42,615 nt of DNA, taken from positions 1 through 42,615 of the IMG/VR virus record IMGVR_UViG_3300029142_000008; one strand, 5' to 3'. The DNA comes from a virus. Taxonomy: Duplodnaviria > Caudoviricetes. The translations under genes and the position numbers were made by a program. Shown here piece by piece: positions 1,483 to 37,119 of this stretch (positions are counted from its first letter, which is position 1; every line of letters begins with the position of its first letter). The notes under the pieces were generated by a model that saw only the letters and a program-made list of their open reading frames with translations, was not told where the DNA came from and did not search any database.

Positions 1483-1659
1483 TTATGAGAAGAAAACGAA
1501 TTTCACAAGACCGCCCATGAGAAGGGCGTCAAAGATGAAAGCTGCAGCCATCACAAAGCCAACAGAAAGCCAGCCGTAACGGTCTCCCATGGCGCGTATG
1601 AGCTCACCTGGTCGATGTTTTGAGATCATCATGAGCTGAGAAAGGATGAGTAGAAACAT
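1483..1659 (-). CDS. small hydrophobic protein (58 aa; not in ORF track)
   Basis: Manual translation MFLLILSQLMMISKHRPGELIRAMGDRYGWLSVGFVMAAAFIFDALLMGGLVKFVFFS; AT-rich leader. Confidence 0.55.
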   Translation of the reverse strand: MFLLILSQLMMISKHRPGELIRAMGDRYGWLSVGFVMAAAFIFDALLMGGLVKFVFFS

Positions 1660-1682: not shown

Positions 1683-2012
1683 GAGGCCACGCATGATTTG
1701 CCGGGAGGGCCGTGGGATCACCACCAGGCTAGCAGCACCCTCCCGGGACAGGATGAGTACAAACTGTACACACCCATTTTAGAATCGCATTACAGGAGTT
1801 TCACCTGTGGACACGCTCTGTTGCACCTTGCAGCCATTTGACCCATGGCTGGGATTCTCATTGTTGTGGGGCCTTTCACCTAGTGGATCAGGTCTTTCGA
1901 CTCACGCTTCACCCTCAGCCCCCAGGGCATTGAACTAGGTCAAGAAATGTTTCCGACAACGAGATTTCATATTGCTTGGGGTTCAGGTTCGGTCGGCTCC
2001 CATGCGTGCCTC
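1683..2012 (-). ncRNA. candidate ~330-nt multi-domain structured RNA of unknown family
   Basis: No ORF in the track; 12-bp closing stem GAGGCACGCATG / CATGCGTG(G)CCTC; nested helices ACCTAGT/ACTAGGT, CAGCCAT/ATGGCTG, ACAGG/CCTGT, CCGGGAGG/CCTCCCGG, AGAATC/GATTCT; GTC-GAAA-GAC tetraloop and a G-U pair favour the minus strand. Confidence 0.7.
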
Positions 2013-2192: not shown

Positions 2193-2465
2193 TCAAAGAA
2201 CTACCTCCCAATCCTCTGAAAGAAGATCGGTCTGCGAGGCCAGCCACGGGACGACGTTACCCTGACTCGTTTTGATGGCGATGTAAGCCCCGTAAGGCAC
2301 CATGTCACCAAAAGCCTCCCTAGCCGCCTCTGTTTGAGCAGGGTATGAGTTGGACGGGACGTAATAAAGGAACATTCCCTTGCCATTCCACCCCTTTCGG
2401 GCGACCTTTTGCCCATGTTTTAAGGCGTGGAGCGCCGATTCAAACTTTCCATCAAACGGTGGCAT
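2193..2465 (-). CDS. DUF2829 family protein (Tad2/AcrIIA7-like anti-defence candidate)
   Basis: F-x-x-AL-x-ALK-x-G-x-KVARKGWNGKGMFL ... PWLASQTDLLSEDW signature. Confidence 0.85.
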   Translation of the reverse strand: MPPFDGKFESALHALKHGQKVARKGWNGKGMFLYYVPSNSYPAQTEAAREAFGDMVPYGAYIAIKTSQGNVVPWLASQTDLLSEDWEVVL

Positions 2466-2588: not shown

Positions 2589-3206
2589 TCAATCAACTTC
2601 TTCATCATCAGAATTGATGATTTCCTCGAGAGTCGGTCCAACATCTGCCACAACACCCTTCTTATCAGAGTAGCCATGGTTAGATGTTAGACCAAGCTTG
2701 GCGATGGTCGGATTATACACGCCAGCAAGGCCCTGATTAAATAATCTTTCGTGCTGTTCATCAGATATAAGCTCCAAAGCGTCCGAAAACTCAGGATGCT
2801 TCTTGGCCCAATCATAAATCGTGCTCTTTGGGATTTTTGAATAAAGAGAGAAGCCACGAACAGAAGGGATCTTCACATGTAGCTGCTGCTTAACATTGAG
2901 TTTTTCCATTGGGCCGTCCTGCTCTCCCTCTTTGTACGATTGAATCTGTGGGTACCACTTATCTTCACAGGACTCCAAATATTTGTAGACGCGCAAAACA
3001 AGCTCTGGGCTGTATTCAGTTGGCCTACCCCCTGCCTTCGGGGAAAGATCTTCTTCTGGAGCCTCCTTGCACCTTCTCTTGTGTGAAGCTAAGCCCTGGG
3101 GGCCCTTGAAGCCCTTTCTCCCACAAAAGCCGCATACGAGAGCGTATCCTTCCTTGGTTCTAGCTTTTTGGGCCGCCGTTTTCTTCTTGGGTGCTTTCTT
3201 TGCCAT
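2589..3206 (-). CDS. terS: terminase small subunit (P22 gp3-like DNA-packaging protein) with N-terminal zinc finger
   Basis: GGRPTEY, HTH-like IPKSTIYDWAKKHPEFSDAL, GLAGVYNPTIAKLGL..NHGY; N-terminal CGFC...HKRRC. Confidence 0.8.
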   Translation of the reverse strand: MAKKAPKKKTAAQKARTKEGYALVCGFCGRKGFKGPQGLASHKRRCKEAPEEDLSPKAGGRPTEYSPELVLRVYKYLESCEDKWYPQIQSYKEGEQDGPMEKLNVKQQLHVKIPSVRGFSLYSKIPKSTIYDWAKKHPEFSDALELISDEQHERLFNQGLAGVYNPTIAKLGLTSNHGYSDKKGVVADVGPTLEEIINSDDEEVD

Positions 3207-3441: not shown

Positions 3442-3660
3442 CTAAGACTCTGGGTTTGCTGAGCGAGTCACGACCACGTCGCAGCCTTCAGCTCCGCGGC
3501 GGCCCTCCATTACATCATAAGACACTTCGTCTCCCTTCTGCGGCTCGCGTCCTGACGTGTTGCGAACATGGAAGAAAAGGTCTTCAGATTCGTTTGGATC
3601 ATCTGGGATGATGAACCCGAATCCTCTTTCCGAGTTGTAGTATTTAATTTTTCCGAGCAT
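3442..3660 (-). CDS. cold-shock domain (CspA-family) nucleic-acid-binding protein
   Basis: GKIKYYNSERGFGFI (RNP1), DLFFH (RNP2), GDEVSY...GRRG. Confidence 0.92.
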   Translation of the reverse strand: MLGKIKYYNSERGFGFIIPDDPNESEDLFFHVRNTSGREPQKGDEVSYDVMEGRRGAEGCDVVVTRSANPES

Positions 3661-3787
3661 ATGATTTTCGGTTACGGGATAGTTTTCTGCAGCTCCGGCT
3701 ACAGTACTTCTGGATCTGACCAGGATTGTTGCGAGTGAGAGGCTTTCTGCACTCAGGACACGTCGGTGGCAGACCCAGAAGCTTCAT
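3644..3787 (-). CDS. small basic zinc-finger protein (47 aa; not in ORF track)
   Basis: Manual translation MKLLGLPPTCPECRKPLTRNNPGQIQKYCSRSCRKLSRNRKSYARKN (CxxC...YCSxxC). Confidence 0.65.
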   Translation of the reverse strand: MKLLGLPPTCPECRKPLTRNNPGQIQKYCSRSCRKLSRNRKSYARKN

Positions 3788-3789
3788 GA

Positions 3790-5439
3790 TTATTTTTTGG
3801 TTTCTTCCTCTTCAGGCTCGTTCGTGATTGAACACTCTGTAGTGATCAATGTCCCGGCCGCACTCACCGCATTCTGCAGTGTGAGCTTGAGAACCTTGAA
3901 TGGATCAATTACACCCGCCTTTACGAGGTTTGTGTGTTCGAGCGTGTTTACATCCACACCCTTTCCTGTCTTGAGGATTTCGACCAATACATCATCCACA
4001 TCTTCAACCCCCGCATTGCGCAAAATGAGCCGACAAGGTTTTTCACAGGCGTTTTTGAGGATTTTATAAGCAATTTTCGCATCTTCACCTTCAGGCTCAA
4101 CAATGCTATTCACAGCCTTAAGGAGGGCAACTCCTCCGCCCTCAACATATCCACTTTCAAGCGTAGCTTTAGCTGCAAACACAGCGTCATCAAGACGGTA
4201 TTTGAGCTCACGCTTTTCAACATCCGTGGCTGCCGAATAGCGAATGGTGGCCAAGCCACCCTCCAAGGCTGCAATCCGCTCATCATACTGCTTGATCTCC
4301 ACCTCGCTCTTGCTTTCTTCTCGAACGTTTTTGATGTACTCAACACGGTCAGCAACAACCTCTTCACTCAAAGGAACAAGAACTGTGTGCTCACGATCTG
4401 AGTAAGCAGATTTTACAGTTCCAAGATCGTCCAACTTGAAGTTTCGAACGTAATTCCCCTTCTCTTTGTCTGCAATTGTAGCCCCTGTTGCCGCGGCAAT
4501 ATCTTCCAAAATTGCCTCACGTCTACTCCCAAACGAAGGTGGCTTCACCCACACCCAGTCAAGAGGTCCACCGCGACCAACACTATTGTTGAACATGAAC
4601 TGAAGCACAGACGCATGCATGTGCTCAGCAATAATTACTAGCCGAGGCACATTCACCTTTTCGATATCCATCATCTCCTTCCCTGTTTGAGGATGCCGAA
4701 CCATCTTTCCCTCCACAAAGTACTGAGCCAGAGCTCCAAAATCTGTGAGTGAATTGATTTTCCCGTTCACAATAAGAACGCGCGCCTCTTCATTGTCGAA
4801 ATCATTCTCATGTCGGTTGTTCTTAAGGGTTCCATGCGTGATTCCATGATCCCACTTGATACCCTTCTGCTGAATAGCCTCTACTCCACTTCCAACGCCT
4901 TCTTCAAAAGAAATGGCGCTATTCTCACCAAGTTCGTACACAAGCTCACCTACCAACTTCCCAAGCTTTGGGTCTCGGCAAGAAATTGTTGCGATGTGAA
5001 CAAGGTCTTCAGCGCTCTTTACCAAATGCCGGTGTCGCGCAGCCTCATCAATAACTTGCTGAACAAGCTCTGTGAGCGCGTATTTTACCGCAACCGGGTT
5101 CATACCCTCCTCACCATCGAAAGCGGCCTCTACGAGCGCGTGCGCAAGCACTACGGCCGTTGTTGTACCATCCCCAGCTAAATCATTTGTGCGAAATGAG
5201 GCCTGTTTAACAATTTGACACCCCATGTCTTCAAATGGATCTTTGAGGCGCATTTCACGAGCAATGGTCACACCATCATTCGTAATTTGAGGTTTTTGCC
5301 AGATTGGTGATTCAAAAATCACATAGCGGCCGCGCGCCCCGAGCGTAACTGAAACTGCATCGGCAAGCTTGGTCACACCGGCGAGAAGCTTTTTACGAGC
5401 ATTTTTTCCATATTCCAGTCTTTTAGGAGAAACTTTCAT
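3790..5439 (-). CDS. groEL: chaperonin GroEL (Cpn60); start placed at MKVSPK (track ORF extends to 5475)
   Basis: LADAVSVTLGARGR, ITNDGVTIA, AGDGTTTAVVLA, GYVEGGGVALL, GVIDPFKV, NAVSAAGTLITTE. Confidence 0.96.
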   Translation of the reverse strand: MKVSPKRLEYGKNARKKLLAGVTKLADAVSVTLGARGRYVIFESPIWQKPQITNDGVTIAREMRLKDPFEDMGCQIVKQASFRTNDLAGDGTTTAVVLAHALVEAAFDGEEGMNPVAVKYALTELVQQVIDEAARHRHLVKSAEDLVHIATISCRDPKLGKLVGELVYELGENSAISFEEGVGSGVEAIQQKGIKWDHGITHGTLKNNRHENDFDNEEARVLIVNGKINSLTDFGALAQYFVEGKMVRHPQTGKEMMDIEKVNVPRLVIIAEHMHASVLQFMFNNSVGRGGPLDWVWVKPPSFGSRREAILEDIAAATGATIADKEKGNYVRNFKLDDLGTVKSAYSDREHTVLVPLSEEVVADRVEYIKNVREESKSEVEIKQYDERIAALEGGLATIRYSAATDVEKRELKYRLDDAVFAAKATLESGYVEGGGVALLKAVNSIVEPEGEDAKIAYKILKNACEKPCRLILRNAGVEDVDDVLVEILKTGKGVDVNTLEHTNLVKAGVIDPFKVLKLTLQNAVSAAGTLITTECSITNEPEEEETKK

Positions 5440-5468
5440 AAGAACAAGTTGAATTAGAAATACAAAAA

Positions 5469-5492
5469 CATTCATTCACTCATTCATTCATT
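5469..5492 (-). repeat. six tandem ARTG (AATG/AGTG) 4-mers between groES and groEL
   Basis: Plus strand catt catt cact catt catt catt. Confidence 0.85.
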
Positions 5493-5493
5493 C

Positions 5494-5814
5494 TCAAGCC
5501 CCGCTCACAGCGAGCACATCCTTTAGGTCAACATAGATGTATTCGTAGTCTGGTGTTTCAATCTTCACCGGACTGTAACGAACAAAGTGGATTTGGCGTC
5601 CAGGACGGATACCACGCACCCATTTGTTCCAAAATCCAATCTGCCCAACCTGCCTGATCACACCAATGTCCGGATGACACTCTCTCTTAAGCTCATCTGG
5701 CATCTTAAGGCCGCCAACATTTGGAGCTTTCCGAGAAACAACAATTCTTTTGCCCAACGGCGAAAAAACCGGCCCCTCAGTGAAACCAGTTCCTGACTTC
5801 AAATCATTCTGCAT
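5494..5814 (-). CDS. groES: co-chaperonin GroES (Cpn10), divergent
   Basis: FSPLGKRIVV, GGLKMPD mobile loop, GVIRQVG, YIYVDLKDVLAV; directly upstream of groEL. Confidence 0.88.
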   Translation of the reverse strand: MQNDLKSGTGFTEGPVFSPLGKRIVVSRKAPNVGGLKMPDELKRECHPDIGVIRQVGQIGFWNKWVRGIRPGRQIHFVRYSPVKIETPDYEYIYVDLKDVLAVSGA

Positions 5815-7871: not shown

Positions 7872-10079
7872 TTATCGAGAGAAACATTGAACGCGAACAG
7901 TTCCGGAATGGTTAGGTGAGACAAGCAGACCATCACCATTCCCGGCGAGCTTTTCAGCCCCATCTTCATCTAGCATCACTTGCGAATCGACCGCCTTCGC
8001 AGCTTTGAGCGCCAAACGAATTGTGAAGTTTGCTTTCACATCTCCTGTAAGAATCTTTGTTGAGAAGCGCTGGGCCGCGAGAACCAAATGAATCCCCGCA
8101 GACCGCGCCTTTTGTCCAAGAATCAATAAATTTTGTTCGAGAGTTTTGAAGCTTCTGTCTCGACGCTCCTTTGCCTTTGAAAAGGCCTCCCATTGGTCAC
8201 GCAGCATCTCTGCCTCAACCTGGCTTCTAGCCTCTGTAATCTTCTTTGCAGGCTGTTGAACCTCCTCACCATACTTATCCACAAGCACACGTCGCTCTTT
8301 GGTTTGTCGTGCAAGACAATCAGCAACCTCATCAAAGATGATCAGCTTCTTGTTTTCGGGCTGCAGGCGGTGTTTCTGGATTCTATCCATCTCTTCCACC
8401 AGCTCTTCAACCTGATTCTCGATGTCCTCTAAAGAAACGTACACCTGGCACAACTCCCTATAGGGATCAAACTTCTCTTCATTTTTTGGGTCAAAAATAA
8501 CCACATCCATGCCTGTTTTCAGGGCTCGGTCAATCATCGTAGCAAGCTGGTATGATTTACCACTACCTGAAGCTCCAGACACCATGAAGTGAGGCGTGGA
8601 TGCGTCGTCCAGATCCCAGAAGATTGCCTCACCAAAGTTGTCTGCACCAATTGGGAGAGTGTTCACCCCTTCATCCATAGCAGGAAGCTGGGCAGCCTGC
8701 CTCTGATCAACTGGCTTATTCACCTCAATAGCAACGTATGTTTGCCCCTCGTAAGGCACCAGGTCCGGCAATACGCGCACTGTCTCGGCCTCTAGGGCCT
8801 GAGCAATGTCTAGCTTGTGCCCCCTGATTGAGGAGATTTTCGTGCCCACACCAACACGCAGAAGGTATGTAGTACAAGAATAGCCATCTACAGTGTGGCG
8901 AACCTCAGCATTAACATTGAATGCACGGAGCACCAGCTGAATGCGCTCCTGAACTGCTTTGTCTTTCATGTTAGAGAAGTCAAATGATACAAATTTTTTG
9001 CTGCCCATTACAGATTCCACAACACTCTTTGGGACTTTCGCGAGTGCGGTTTTCTTCACATGACTCCTTCTCTTGCTGAGAAGAGCCTTTTGTTTCTCAT
9101 CCAGGTTTTGGAACTCACTTAGGTCATCCAGGTGTGTTTTCACCCAGAAATCCACCATTTCCCCAGCATCTTCATAATTGTCGGCTGGGTTCATCAGGTA
9201 AATGTAGTCCGGATCTTGAACTGCCTGAATTGTTCTCCAAACGGGCTCAAAAAACATGTTCTCGTAAAGCTCTCTTGTTTCAACCATGTCGATTTTATGC
9301 TTCTTGATTTGTGGACTCTTATCTCTGTTTTTTGTGTACTTGTTTTCGTAGAAGAAGAACCACTTCATCCCATTTGCAATCTTTGGGTATTTTTTGCGTA
9401 GAGCTTTGAACTCTGGACGCATGAGCCTGGCCGTCACCGTTTTGTCATAAGTTGTTGACTGGTAGGCAAAACTCAAGTGTGCCTCCCTTGCCTGGGTGTA
9501 TTTCCCTTTAGACTTGTGATCTAGGCCGCAAAGCTCATCTTCATGGTTTATGTAAACAATATCCGGAACCGCCTTAAATGGCAGCGGGATTGAAATGTCA
9601 CACAAAACAATGAACTCAATGATTCTCTCCTCAATAAAAACAACCTCTTTAATATCTTTCAAATATTCACCAACTTGCTCTAGAAACTGGTGAATCAAAT
9701 TGGTGATATGCATCTGACACTGATCTTTCACCTGAACAGAGGTCTTGTTTGCATAAACTTTGTAGTCAACCAGCTCAACTTTATCGAGCTCTCTATATGC
9801 AGTGTCGAGCAGACGTTCAAGTGGAAGTTGCTTTCCGTGGTCTCGGTAGGTCTCAAAGAACATTTCAAGCACTTTGTGGTAAACCGTTCCAATCACCTTG
9901 GGCGCAGAAAGGCCAACATCCGAGTAGTTTTTGAAGACATAGTATTTCTCAAACGCCTTCTCGTTTCGTATGAAGGTGCTCACAGCGCTCACAGAAAGGT
10001 GCTCAACAAGAAAGTTCTGCAAATGAGCATCCAGCTTTTCAGGAGCTAATTTTTCGTAGGTATTATTCATTGTTTTCAT
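7872..10079 (-). CDS. fusion of a PD-(D/E)XK (RecB-like) nuclease and an FtsK/SpoIIIE-type ATPase
   Basis: N-half: LSVSAV, GTVYHKVLE, PDIVY, DHK, QSTTY. C-half: FtsK-alpha-like region (DIAQAL...VAIEV), TPHFMVSGASGSGKS (Walker A), IIFDEVAD (Walker B), KARSAGIHLVLAAQR, GAEKLAGNGDGL. Confidence 0.88.
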   Translation of the reverse strand: MKTMNNTYEKLAPEKLDAHLQNFLVEHLSVSAVSTFIRNEKAFEKYYVFKNYSDVGLSAPKVIGTVYHKVLEMFFETYRDHGKQLPLERLLDTAYRELDKVELVDYKVYANKTSVQVKDQCQMHITNLIHQFLEQVGEYLKDIKEVVFIEERIIEFIVLCDISIPLPFKAVPDIVYINHEDELCGLDHKSKGKYTQAREAHLSFAYQSTTYDKTVTARLMRPEFKALRKKYPKIANGMKWFFFYENKYTKNRDKSPQIKKHKIDMVETRELYENMFFEPVWRTIQAVQDPDYIYLMNPADNYEDAGEMVDFWVKTHLDDLSEFQNLDEKQKALLSKRRSHVKKTALAKVPKSVVESVMGSKKFVSFDFSNMKDKAVQERIQLVLRAFNVNAEVRHTVDGYSCTTYLLRVGVGTKISSIRGHKLDIAQALEAETVRVLPDLVPYEGQTYVAIEVNKPVDQRQAAQLPAMDEGVNTLPIGADNFGEAIFWDLDDASTPHFMVSGASGSGKSYQLATMIDRALKTGMDVVIFDPKNEEKFDPYRELCQVYVSLEDIENQVEELVEEMDRIQKHRLQPENKKLIIFDEVADCLARQTKERRVLVDKYGEEVQQPAKKITEARSQVEAEMLRDQWEAFSKAKERRDRSFKTLEQNLLILGQKARSAGIHLVLAAQRFSTKILTGDVKANFTIRLALKAAKAVDSQVMLDEDGAEKLAGNGDGLLVSPNHSGTVRVQCFSR

Positions 10080-11440: not shown

Positions 11441-11509
11441 AACGTCCTCTCCCCGAATCGAACGGGCTGGATGGCCACTTCCAGTTTCCCATGAAACCAA
11501 GAGGACGTT
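11441..11509 (-). ncRNA. minimal tRNA-like RNA (not a canonical tRNA)
   Basis: 10-bp terminal stem AACGTCCTCT/AGAGGACGTT; TG linker; D-like arm GTTT-CATGGG-AAAC; arm TGGA-AGTGGCCA-TCCA; T-arm CCCG-TTCGATT-CGGG; no variable loop, no encoded CCA. Confidence 0.7.
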
Positions 11510-11524
11510 TCAACACAGCTATTG

Positions 11525-11688
11525 TAAGGGAGGTGTTAGTTAATTGCAAGTCTGGCTCAACAAACTACCTTGAAAGAATCCCAAAATGACCGATGATTTT
11601 GCTTTCTTGATTCCGATGGCTGAGCCTGTAGCTTCGCTTTATTATCTACTATTAGGTGATTGTCTAATAATGACGCAATTGTCCCTTA
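11525..11688 (-). ncRNA. candidate ~165-nt nested-stem structured RNA
   Basis: Nested inverted repeats TAAGGGA/TCCCTTA, AATTGC/GCAATT, GGCTCA/TGAGCC, GAAAG/CTTTC, CAAAAT/ATTTTG, TATTAG/CTAATA; strand inferred from neighbours. Confidence 0.5.
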
Positions 11689-11708: not shown

Positions 11709-11933
11709 AATTTGGGAAGGCCAAGGATTTGCACCTTGGATGCTGGTATTTATCCGTGGGGAGCTTTCGCTTGCTAGTTCGGAATCCAACCGAGAAAGGC
11801 TAGTTATGCGTTTTAGTGGTCTGATTCGCCTGACCGCTCACCAACAGTTATGATTTCCCGTTGGTCGCCCCTACGCTCCACCCCCAGCCATAACGGTGTT
11901 TTGGCGTTACCTATTCCGCCACCTTCCCAAATT
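11709..11933 (-). ncRNA. tRNA-like scaffold with ~160-nt structured insert replacing the anticodon arm
   Basis: 12-bp terminal stem AATTTGGGAAGG/CCTTCCCAAATT; TG; Leu-type D-arm GCG-GAATAGGTAA-CGC; T-arm CCAAGG-TGCAAAT-CCTTGG; insert closed by GCTGG/CCAGC with several hairpins. Confidence 0.75.
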
Positions 11934-12356: not shown

Positions 12357-12398
12357 TGGTTCGAATCTAGCTTGGGCACCCACATTGGATTCGAACCA
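12357..12398. repeat. 11-bp inverted repeat built from the tRNA T-loop consensus
   Basis: TGGTTCGAATC (12357-12367) and GATTCGAACCA (12388-12398). Confidence 0.75.
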
Positions 12399-12439
12399 AC
12401 ATGTAAAACACATGTAAAAATGTTACATATTCAACCTGT

Positions 12440-12476
12440 AAAAAACAAAAGAGGGCCGGTCGAAAGCCCCCTTTGT
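12440..12476 (-). terminator. intrinsic terminator ending the late/lysis operon
   Basis: GGGGGC-TTTCGACCG-GCCCTC followed by TTTTGTTTTTT, ~30 nt after the holin-candidate stop. Confidence 0.7.
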
Positions 12477-35442: not shown

Positions 35443-37119
35443 CTACCAATTTGGGGAAGTCTTCTTTTGCTTCAGCTTGTCTCTCAGCTTCTCCTCTTGT
35501 GTTTTGGGCTGCTTGGGCTCTACGGCATAGTCAAAAATGTAGGTGGCAATGGCCAAAGAAATCACGGCATCGTCGTGACAACCCTCTTGCGCCTGGTACT
35601 TCCCCTTTTCGTCCCTCACAAACGTCATACACTCCAAGATGGTGTTTTCGTCATTGAGCGCAAACTCACCCTCATTGATCCAGTCTGCAAGCTTGTCGAG
35701 CACAACTGCACGCGTCCTATTATTTGTGTGAAACCCGAGCTTGTACTCTCCTCGCTCACTTTGGCGGTCCACGGTTCTTCTCATAAACAAAGACGGATAC
35801 ATGATGTCTTTCTGCAAAACACGGTTTGTGGTGATCCCACCTTTATTCACCTCAATCCCAACAAATGCGCATGAATGGGCACCACCATAAAAATATCCAA
35901 GCCTGGCTGCATCATAGGCGAACTCTGTTGGGTTGATTTTACCCCTAAGCGTGGCACAAAGGTCTCCAGACCCCTTCTCCAAAACCTGCAAAACAGAGTA
36001 ATCCGAATTGGGCGTACCCTTCGCCGTATCCCCCCCAATGACATAGGTTTTCTTTGGATTTGGCCATTTGTAGATGCGCAAATGACCCTTGTGATGTTTG
36101 TTCAGCTCTGGCGTCTTTACCTTGGCAGCGGTGTTCTCTGAATCCAAATTTCCAACCCATCTGGGCTTTGGACAGTAATCGTGATAGATGTTGAGGTTCT
36201 GCATATTGAACTTCGGCGCACCCGAAACGATGAACGCCTCCCTGTCCGAAGAGGGGTATTCTTGCTTGAATTTATTCTCATCCCCTCCACACTTATTTGC
36301 AATCGCCCAACGCCTCCAGTTCAGCTGGTCGTTCGTAAGCCCATACATCTCTTTAAGATCTTCTTCCTCCTGGGTTGGCTTGAAATCATCCGGGGCTTTC
36401 CGGGAGTACTCCGGAAACAAGTGCCACGGCAAGAAGATAGCCTCAAAATCATTCTCACCTCGCTTTGCGGCCCAGTACATGTTGTAGAAATACCCCCCCA
36501 CACCATTTGCCGTGGACTCCAAAATAACCGTGGTGTCTGGATGATCTGGAATTTCCTGCAGAGCGGCGAGCATAAGACGCTCTGCATCGGGCCAGAATGC
36601 CACCTCAGAAGCGTGAAAGTTTTGTGCTGTAGACCCACGCTGCTCCTTTTTGTTTGCCGTCGCAACCTGAAGGCTTGAGCGCAGCCCAGGCTTCACTTTC
36701 CGCTCTTCATCATCTGGATTCTCAAACACAAGCCGTTTCGCACTGTCATAGCGCTTCACCGGGGTGGCACTTGCAGGCAAATTATCATAAAAAAGCTTCG
36801 TCATCTCAAAGATTGAGCTGGTTGAATCAGGATCATGGGCAACAATCTTGGACTTCCTGTTTTCCCTGGTTGCCGTATCGTGAAAGATTAGAGCCTCTGA
36901 ATACGTTGAAATCCCCTGCTGCCGGGCCTTCAGGATAACAAGCTTCACGGGAATGTTGTTCTTCCGAAGCTCCTTCACCCGATTGTGAACAATTCTTTGC
37001 GCAGCATTCATTTTGAGGGGCACAATCTCACCCTTCTTTGTTTTGATCTTGAGTAGCTTTCGCGCATACCACTCGAAATCACTGAGGTATTTTTTCTTTT
37101 CTTTATTGCTGAGTGCCAT
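35443..37119 (-). CDS. terL: terminase large subunit
   Basis: ILKARQQGIST (Walker A), FHASEVAFW (Walker B), ILESTANG, FKQEYP, YVIGGDTAKG...DYS, HDDAVISLAIA. Confidence 0.95.
   Translation of the reverse strand: MALSNKEKKKYLSDFEWYARKLLKIKTKKGEIVPLKMNAAQRIVHNRVKELRKNNIPVKLVILKARQQGISTYSEALIFHDTATRENRKSKIVAHDPDSTSSIFEMTKLFYDNLPASATPVKRYDSAKRLVFENPDDEERKVKPGLRSSLQVATANKKEQRGSTAQNFHASEVAFWPDAERLMLAALQEIPDHPDTTVILESTANGVGGYFYNMYWAAKRGENDFEAIFLPWHLFPEYSRKAPDDFKPTQEEEDLKEMYGLTNDQLNWRRWAIANKCGGDENKFKQEYPSSDREAFIVSGAPKFNMQNLNIYHDYCPKPRWVGNLDSENTAAKVKTPELNKHHKGHLRIYKWPNPKKTYVIGGDTAKGTPNSDYSVLQVLEKGSGDLCATLRGKINPTEFAYDAARLGYFYGGAHSCAFVGIEVNKGGITTNRVLQKDIMYPSLFMRRTVDRQSERGEYKLGFHTNNRTRAVVLDKLADWINEGEFALNDENTILECMTFVRDEKGKYQAQEGCHDDAVISLAIATYIFDYAVEPKQPKTQEEKLRDKLKQKKTSPNW

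Follow-up and report, generated by a model that had tools for sequence, protein, structure and literature searches.

A candidate 330-nt RNA with one T-loop-type hairpin in the longest ORF-free gap of a small tailed phage

What does the longest ORF-free gap of a gene-dense phage genome contain? The window studied here, a virus record of 42,615 nt analysed in full, belongs to a tailed phage in which every identified gene lies on the minus strand. The minus strand is free of ORFs of at least 45 aa from 1660 to 2192 (533 nt), and no other stretch of the window is free of them for so long (the next is 454 nt); the longest ORF inside the gap on either strand, of 53 aa, is on the plus strand. A first-pass annotation had placed in this ORF-free segment, which the present analysis confirms, a highly structured RNA of about 330 nt with two T-loop-type motifs. 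The GC content of the proposed RNA is 54.5%, against 46.8% for the genome. From the predicted fold and the setting we tentatively suggest, at a little less than an even chance, that the gap encodes a stand-alone, non-catalytic minus-strand phage RNA of about 330 nt, whose single T-loop would pack the molecule's own fold rather than grip tRNA. That the segment is a functional structured RNA of some kind, with a gene, an operon spacer and descent from either of two known RNAs all counted, is very probable. The elements of the candidate, from its 5′ end, are as follows.

1683-2012, minus strand: candidate non-coding RNA of 330 nt, bounded by its own closing stem and proposed from the gap, the GC content and the fold
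2000-2012, minus strand: 5′ strand of the closing stem (13 bp, one bulge; 10 pairs with p > 0.9)
1904-1920, minus strand: 17-nt string, 15/17 shared with 11873-11889 inside a tRNA-framed RNA
1892-1901, minus strand: GUC-GAAA-GAC tetraloop hairpin, pair probability 0.64
1831-1851, minus strand: 7-bp hairpin with a 7-nt loop at 1838-1844, stem p 0.96
1821-1832, minus strand: 12-nt string, the same as the 5′ half of the T-arm in phage tRNA-framed RNAs (L429, L432-L434)
1816-1827, minus strand: string GGTGCAACAGAG, like conserved region II of RNase P RNA, with C next, where T-loop 1 needs A
1792-1808, minus strand: T-arm-shaped hairpin with a 5-bp stem, G-C closure and the loop UGAAACU, p 0.99
1751-1775, minus strand: 10-bp interrupted hairpin, 9 pairs with p > 0.9
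1701-1746, minus strand: 10-bp GC-rich helix, p 0.42 and 0.59 as nested alternatives with loop pairing
1683-1696, minus strand: 3′ strand of the closing stem; 24 nt separate its end from the start codon at 1659

The following genes define the surroundings.

35443-37119, minus strand: terminase large subunit
2589-3206, minus strand: terminase small subunit
2193-2465, minus strand: Tad2-like (Thoeris anti-defence 2-like) gene, the upstream neighbour of the RNA (Pfam PF11195, E 2.5e-26)
1483-1659, minus strand: 58-aa hydrophobic ORF, the downstream neighbour of the RNA

Also identified were the genes for capsid, RecT, endonuclease V, a cold-shock protein, GroEL/GroES and an FtsK-nuclease fusion. 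GroEL, GroES and the cold-shock gene (3442-5814) stand before the small terminase gene in this 42-kb phage; the GroEL, kept in the related genomes G003 and G004, marks a phage clade with about 15 relatives at 43-64% identity. A single minus-strand ORF at 7872-10079 joins a PD-(D/E)XK nuclease domain to an FtsK-type ATPase and adjoins RecT. Four copies of the palindrome GCGTACGC lie within 96 nt (2492-2587), immediately after the stop codon of the small terminase gene, and the rest of the window has none (0.11 expected); they are candidate packaging or protein-binding sites. Since 8/10 of the organism-named GroEL relatives among the 120 matches listed are Patescibacteria (36-38% identity), the host is likely a member of that group. 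The closest relative that could be reached, G003, has 64-68% nucleotide identity over several genes, and its interval from the cold-shock gene to the terminase large subunit is only about 1.1 kb. If the ends of the window join, as we infer, the block holding the 330-nt RNA is accessory, about 8 kb being missing from G003 at that place.

How well does the sequence fold? The closing stem, annotated as 12 bp, is present, with its length corrected to 13 bp and one bulged base, and an AU-rich stretch lies between it and the start codon at 1659. A long-range stem as strong arose in 9/150 shuffles of the gap. The annotated GAAA tetraloop on the minus strand is likewise present. The 1701-1746 helix and a pairing between 1721-1729, in its loop, and 1878-1886 are the strongest and second-strongest helices, and the latter is a possible pseudoknot; loop 1838-1844 is complementary to 1937-1943 and makes a second candidate. 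A model combining both pseudoknots is self-consistent but no better than shuffles, and it was set aside. More hairpins lie at 2026-2190 on the minus strand, between the Tad2-like gene and the closing stem; one of them, at about 2022-2039, has a GCAA loop on a stem of 7 bp. On its 5′ side the RNA may reach beyond 2012.

The most unusual feature of the RNA is the T-arm-shaped hairpin at 1792-1808. A 5-bp stem and 7-nt loop of this shape is expected by chance 0.008 times per 330-nt strand; the window contains seven T-arm-shaped hairpins against a control mean of 2.2, and of the four on the minus strand three lie outside long ORFs, one within the tRNA-framed RNA. The string GGTGAAA by itself is common enough (13 found in the window, 10.25 expected).

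The proposal of a stand-alone RNA thus draws on several observations: the longest ORF-free gap in a gene-dense genome, with raised GC; a 13-bp closing stem together with the confidently predicted T-arm-shaped hairpin; a coding strand shared with all identified genes, in a phage that has other RNA-like genes; and the accessory nature of the block as judged against G003. It also has a precedent in raiA RNA, in which, according to the accessible part of its description, a lone T-loop with an intercalated A serves as a packing motif (10.1101/2024.12.08.627333). The RNA would be co-transcribed with the genes for the terminase small subunit, the Tad2-like protein and the small ORF, and the closing stem may protect the ends of a processed, stable product. 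Its UGAAA loop would capture an adenosine from elsewhere in the molecule, as the lone raiA T-loop does, and one or two pseudoknots might compact the fold. As to function, the genomic context hints faintly at a folded decoy or scaffold, abundant during infection, that would engage RNA-binding proteins or nucleases of the host and would be one component of an accessory block, next to an anti-defence gene. Weighing against a stand-alone RNA are its marginal folding relative to shuffled sequence, a plus strand that folds as well, the want of homologues and hence of covariation, and the lack of a framing promoter or terminator.

The last of these points bears on the first rival reading, which we consider unlikely although it deserves attention: that the segment is a cis-acting structured spacer or leader in an operon mRNA, with the stem as a site of processing or stabilisation through which the level or translation of the small ORFs, whose start lies 24 nt downstream, is set. 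A search for a promoter or terminator of its own framing the RNA found none, as expected of a spacer between co-oriented genes, and the position of the stem just ahead of the start codon at 1659, with the AU-rich stretch next, fits this reading too. However, 330 nt plus a T-loop hairpin exceeds what such spacers generally need, and a search with the 58-aa downstream ORF returned only the ORF itself, so that no conserved pairing of element and gene can be demonstrated.

The folding statistics speak to a second rival, namely that the segment is a spacer without function, or one in decay, and that its motifs are chance matches singled out after the fact. The minus-strand minimum free energy has a z score of -1.69, with 7/100 shuffles as good; for the plus strand the values are -1.86 and 3/100, and that strand has more confident pairs (58 vs. 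29 for the minus strand). As controls, the 12 Patescibacteria RNase P loci folded (of 40) gave z scores from -1.7 to -7.1. The best compatible set of helices, pseudoknots allowed, was equalled by 138/400 shuffles. With a z score near -1.7 and a helix content the same as that of shuffles, the first-pass term "highly structured" was an overstatement. The motifs, too, are open to coincidence: a GUGCAA core fits the tRNA T-arm when extended leftwards (over 12 nt) and region II of RNase P when extended rightwards, which means that one likeness or the other, if not both, is due to chance, and 52 viral loci have both strings with no further likeness to the RNA. We nevertheless regard the chance reading as decidedly unlikely, since a compact phage would be carrying 533 ORF-free bases with raised GC, and a closing stem, a GNRA hairpin and a T-arm hairpin would have to occur together.

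Homologues would allow a test by covariation, and the search for them came up empty in related phages, in motif scans and in Patescibacteria samples, as far as single-sequence models and a metagenome scan of little use could reach. Motif scans of viral contigs returned 36, 19 and 52 loci, none of which, by eye, resembled the RNA beyond the pattern itself; nhmmer on the 52 found no resemblance either, and Rfam matched none of the loci tested (15/36, 19/19 and 20/52). The small terminase and GroEL as single protein queries yielded no viral locus, and a metagenome scan with GroEL gave a single locus, 32% identical, which leaves the RNA effectively unsearched in that collection. A terminase alignment search, represented by the best 80 of 590 loci from 22/64 parts, had a best nhmmer E of 0.34, which is unconvincing. 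Family-specific protein patterns gave 5 and 7 loci, with two contigs in common, and ten related or pattern-bearing virus records (five whole and five further ones) held no real match to the RNA. In genome contigs the terminase pattern found nothing, and the RNA pattern found at least 120 loci out of about 7000 stretches. No match in annotated phages and plasmids spanned more than 9% of the query.

The Patescibacteria were covered by five samples of 151-401 genomes each. There, blastn gave 21/401 at E ≤ 0.05, and the 20 inspected were chance matches of 18-43 nt. Two single-sequence models of parts of the RNA, R1 and R2, both of low sensitivity, each matched 1/151, R1 at E 0.0054 (about 0.8 expected; judged chance) and R2 at E 0.017. 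Class-level searches gave 0/151 and 0/401, and R1 run over 98 sources recovered only the window. One run of a second study (X3) contains an identical 207-nt contig covering 1827-2033 at depth 2, with no other long piece matching over 20 kb; this run was found with this very stretch and is not evidence for the RNA. Among the sequencing runs listed for the stretch, none is an RNA run.

The third rival is a derivative of RNase P RNA that binds tRNA elbows. The double T-loop module stacks on the G19-C56 elbow of tRNA. Its core is AGNNA followed by UGNNA, in which the six nearly invariant bases make up two triples and one loop is A-closed, the other U-closed, as given in the accessible part of PMC3664808. 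The first-pass annotation had claimed interdigitated T-loops of this kind, and the sequences that it named are where it put them, GGTGCAACAGAG at 1816-1827 and the hairpin ACAGG-TGAAACT-CCTGT at 1792-1808. Of its two T-loop motifs one stands: T-loop 2, of the form UGNNA and located 3′ of the other, reads UGAAA at 1799-1803 and is supported by the stem that closes it. The other falls, since T-loop 1 reads AGAGC rather than AGNNA, with C at 1815; the annotated string ends one base short of the invariant A position. Among the 120 RNase P-pattern loci listed, gathered with a pattern that left this base free, it is A in 119, and the sole exception (L255) does not look like RNase P. It is also A in 61/63 Patescibacteria RNase P RNAs, the two others being regex mislocations whose true sites have A. 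In the candidate RNA, AGNNA occurs only at its positions 2, 37 and 163, the last within a helix, and there is none near the loop outside a helix.

The predicted folds agree. Closing the module by a P11-like helix gives -13.2/-11.8 kcal/mol against -21.0/-22.0 for the plain hairpin; these energies describe secondary structure and ignore tertiary stabilisation. Freeing both loops under such a helix thus costs about 8-10 kcal/mol. The P11 pair probability is 0.0, and in no favoured fold are both loops freed together under enclosing helices. The RF00010 covariance model gave 0/1 on the window at E ≤ 10, with matches in 11/14 control genomes and 144/151 Patescibacteria genomes (one of which, G120, has two matches above the cut-off). 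Neither the profiles built on 120 and on 101 RNase P sequences nor those built on 19 without P13/P14 and on 5 and 17 Patescibacteria cores matched the site. The annotated absence of the RNase P catalytic signatures is borne out as well: the catalytic strand GAAAGUCC is missing, and so is the P4 pseudoknot that it forms with a 3′ GGCU strand. The window has GAAAGGCC, found in 0/120 of the listed comparator loci, whereas GAAAGTCC is present in 120/120; the listed pairing partners of GAAAGGCC are found upstream or within the closing stem rather than immediately ahead of it. The RNase P reading fails at the missing T-loop 1 A; the catalytic strand is missing too, and neither RF00010 nor any profile matches. 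The claim of interdigitated T-loops gripping tRNA elbows is not supported.

A derivative that had kept elbow binding is a separate matter. RNase P RNAs lacking P12 exist in Patescibacteria, as the accessible part of PMC8172020 indicates, and L397, L405, L406, L407 and L421 are Patescibacteria RNase P RNAs in which P12 is cut to 10-11 nt between the T-loops. The candidate resembles the J11/12-J12/13 region of the specificity domain, especially in such P12-less forms, in having GCAACAGAG and then UGAAAC 12 nt later (10-11 nt in the five RNAs just named). A hairpin precedes the module, a 6-bp helix is able to enclose it, and the total length is similar. On a two-block weight matrix from 63 Patescibacteria RNAs the site scores 19.8 bits; 15 of 2.39 million phage positions score as high, which corresponds to 0.004 sites expected in 330 nt and 0.53 over the window. 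Model R1 aligns to L408 in the specificity-domain register at E 0.12. This resemblance is suggestive, not significant. A site inside the window's 726-aa ORF scores higher (21.4 bits), the median for true RNase P RNAs is 29.9 bits, and the C in T-loop 1, the energetic cost of opening both loops and the silence of RF00010 and the profiles all stand against an elbow-binding derivative, which we judge very unlikely.

Could the RNA instead be related to the tRNA-like elements elsewhere in the same genome? Two of these lie at 11.4-11.9 kb.

11709-11933, minus strand: tRNA-framed RNA, with acceptor stem, D-arm and T-arm around an insert of about 150 nt; z -2.7
11441-11509, minus strand: small tRNA-like form of 69 nt, with a long acceptor stem and a T-arm, missed by ARAGORN; z -2.3

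Annotated as tRNA mimics, they are real as sequence elements; the accompanying idea that they are ligands of the 330-nt RNA found no link. The insert of 11709-11933 contains no usable anticodon arm, and the element has no Rfam match. Elements with the same D- and T-arms and other inserts occur, unannotated, in Enterococcus phages 113 and EA1, Listeria phage LP-114 and Paenibacillus phage Pd_22F, and a two-member profile (L429+L431) matches 11719-11922 at E 4e-6 and leaves the 330-nt RNA unmatched. As an RNA gene, 11709-11933 is better supported than the candidate.

The fourth rival holds that the 330-nt RNA is a rearranged, enlarged relative of this element, itself a tRNA-like decoy, in which the same insert module and what is left of the T-arm sit in a different frame. 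The 330-nt and 225-nt elements have collinear strings in common: the 15/17-nt match, then GYGAAAG, CCCCAC, CCAGC and CAAGGUGCAA. With the phage tRNA-framed RNAs, whose inserts are swapped, the candidate shares the 12-nt T-arm string, and with the window's own copy the 17-nt string. Under four settings with cheap long gaps, 35-104 of 3000 shuffles reach the whole-element similarity score; with ordinary gaps, however, 613/3000 do, and 10-18 of 742 genome windows score as well. The candidate lacks the acceptor stem, D-arm and T-arm around a variable insert: there is no D-arm or acceptor frame, and no T-stem partner stands next to UGCAA to complete the arm. The shared strings are a lead only, and kinship of this sort seems to us quite improbable.

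There is a slender chance for the boldest reading: a phage of ultra-small bacteria would have taken over the P12-less RNase P RNA of its host, keeping the half that reads tRNA and dropping the catalytic half. As a free-standing trap for tRNA elbows, with a double T-loop of non-canonical form, the RNA would compete with host RNase P or shield the phage's own tRNA-framed RNAs, a fourth use of the module that is neither regulatory nor catalytic.

The candidate can also be compared with RNAs outside these two lines of descent. Like the apex of T-box stem I and the L1 stalk of 23S rRNA, it has an AG-rich stretch 5′ of a UGNNA hairpin loop (as far as the accessible part of PMC3664808 describes them); unlike them, it has no AGNNA partner, no amino-acid gene downstream and no T-box or rRNA match in Rfam. 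It is like raiA, ROOL, GOLLD and OLE in being a phage- or bacterium-borne RNA without an assigned job, and its lone T-loop recalls that of raiA. The same partly accessible source reports that ROOL and GOLLD are often near tRNA islands and gives example lengths of 659 nt for ROOL and 800 nt for GOLLD (10.1101/2024.12.08.627333). The candidate is shorter than these examples, has no Rfam match to any of the four, and has a fold that is so far a predicted one, where theirs are ornate.

The first-pass label "unclassified RNA" therefore holds, the Rfam check having returned no family. A scan of the whole window with Rfam 15 gave nothing at E ≤ 1, with T-box, raiA, ROOL, GOLLD and OLE included, and over 1600-2250 gave five unrelated noise matches at E 3-9; ARAGORN at default settings found nothing. 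A group I intron, a circularly permuted RNase P RNA, a 23S rRNA fragment and tmRNA were each rejected by eye for lack of core helices or Rfam signal. Among the literature matches listed, PMC10690425, PMC12974513, PMC5389517 and 10.64898/2026.09.22.753630 included, the main texts, as far as accessible, contain no description of the 330-nt RNA; the tables of 10,006 viral candidates that belong to PMC10690425 could contain it. It is an uncatalogued candidate, and phage structured RNAs without a known job are already a recognised kind. Provided that it is real, it is a further uncatalogued structured RNA in a small phage whose genome has a Tad2-like gene, a cold-shock protein, GroEL/GroES and tRNA-framed RNAs as well, and the RNA genes of such phages are barely annotated. 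A singleton so far, the 330-nt RNA teaches little yet.

Other tRNA-like features were seen along the way. A weak promoter-like site at 11521-11549 lies just upstream of the small form at 11441-11509. An inverted repeat at 12357-12400 on the minus strand, downstream of a predicted terminator at 12448-12474, holds a third T-arm-shaped hairpin with a canonical TTCGAAT loop. In G003, two unusual tRNA-like genes occur at L147:10345-10570, one of them nested in an outer hairpin.
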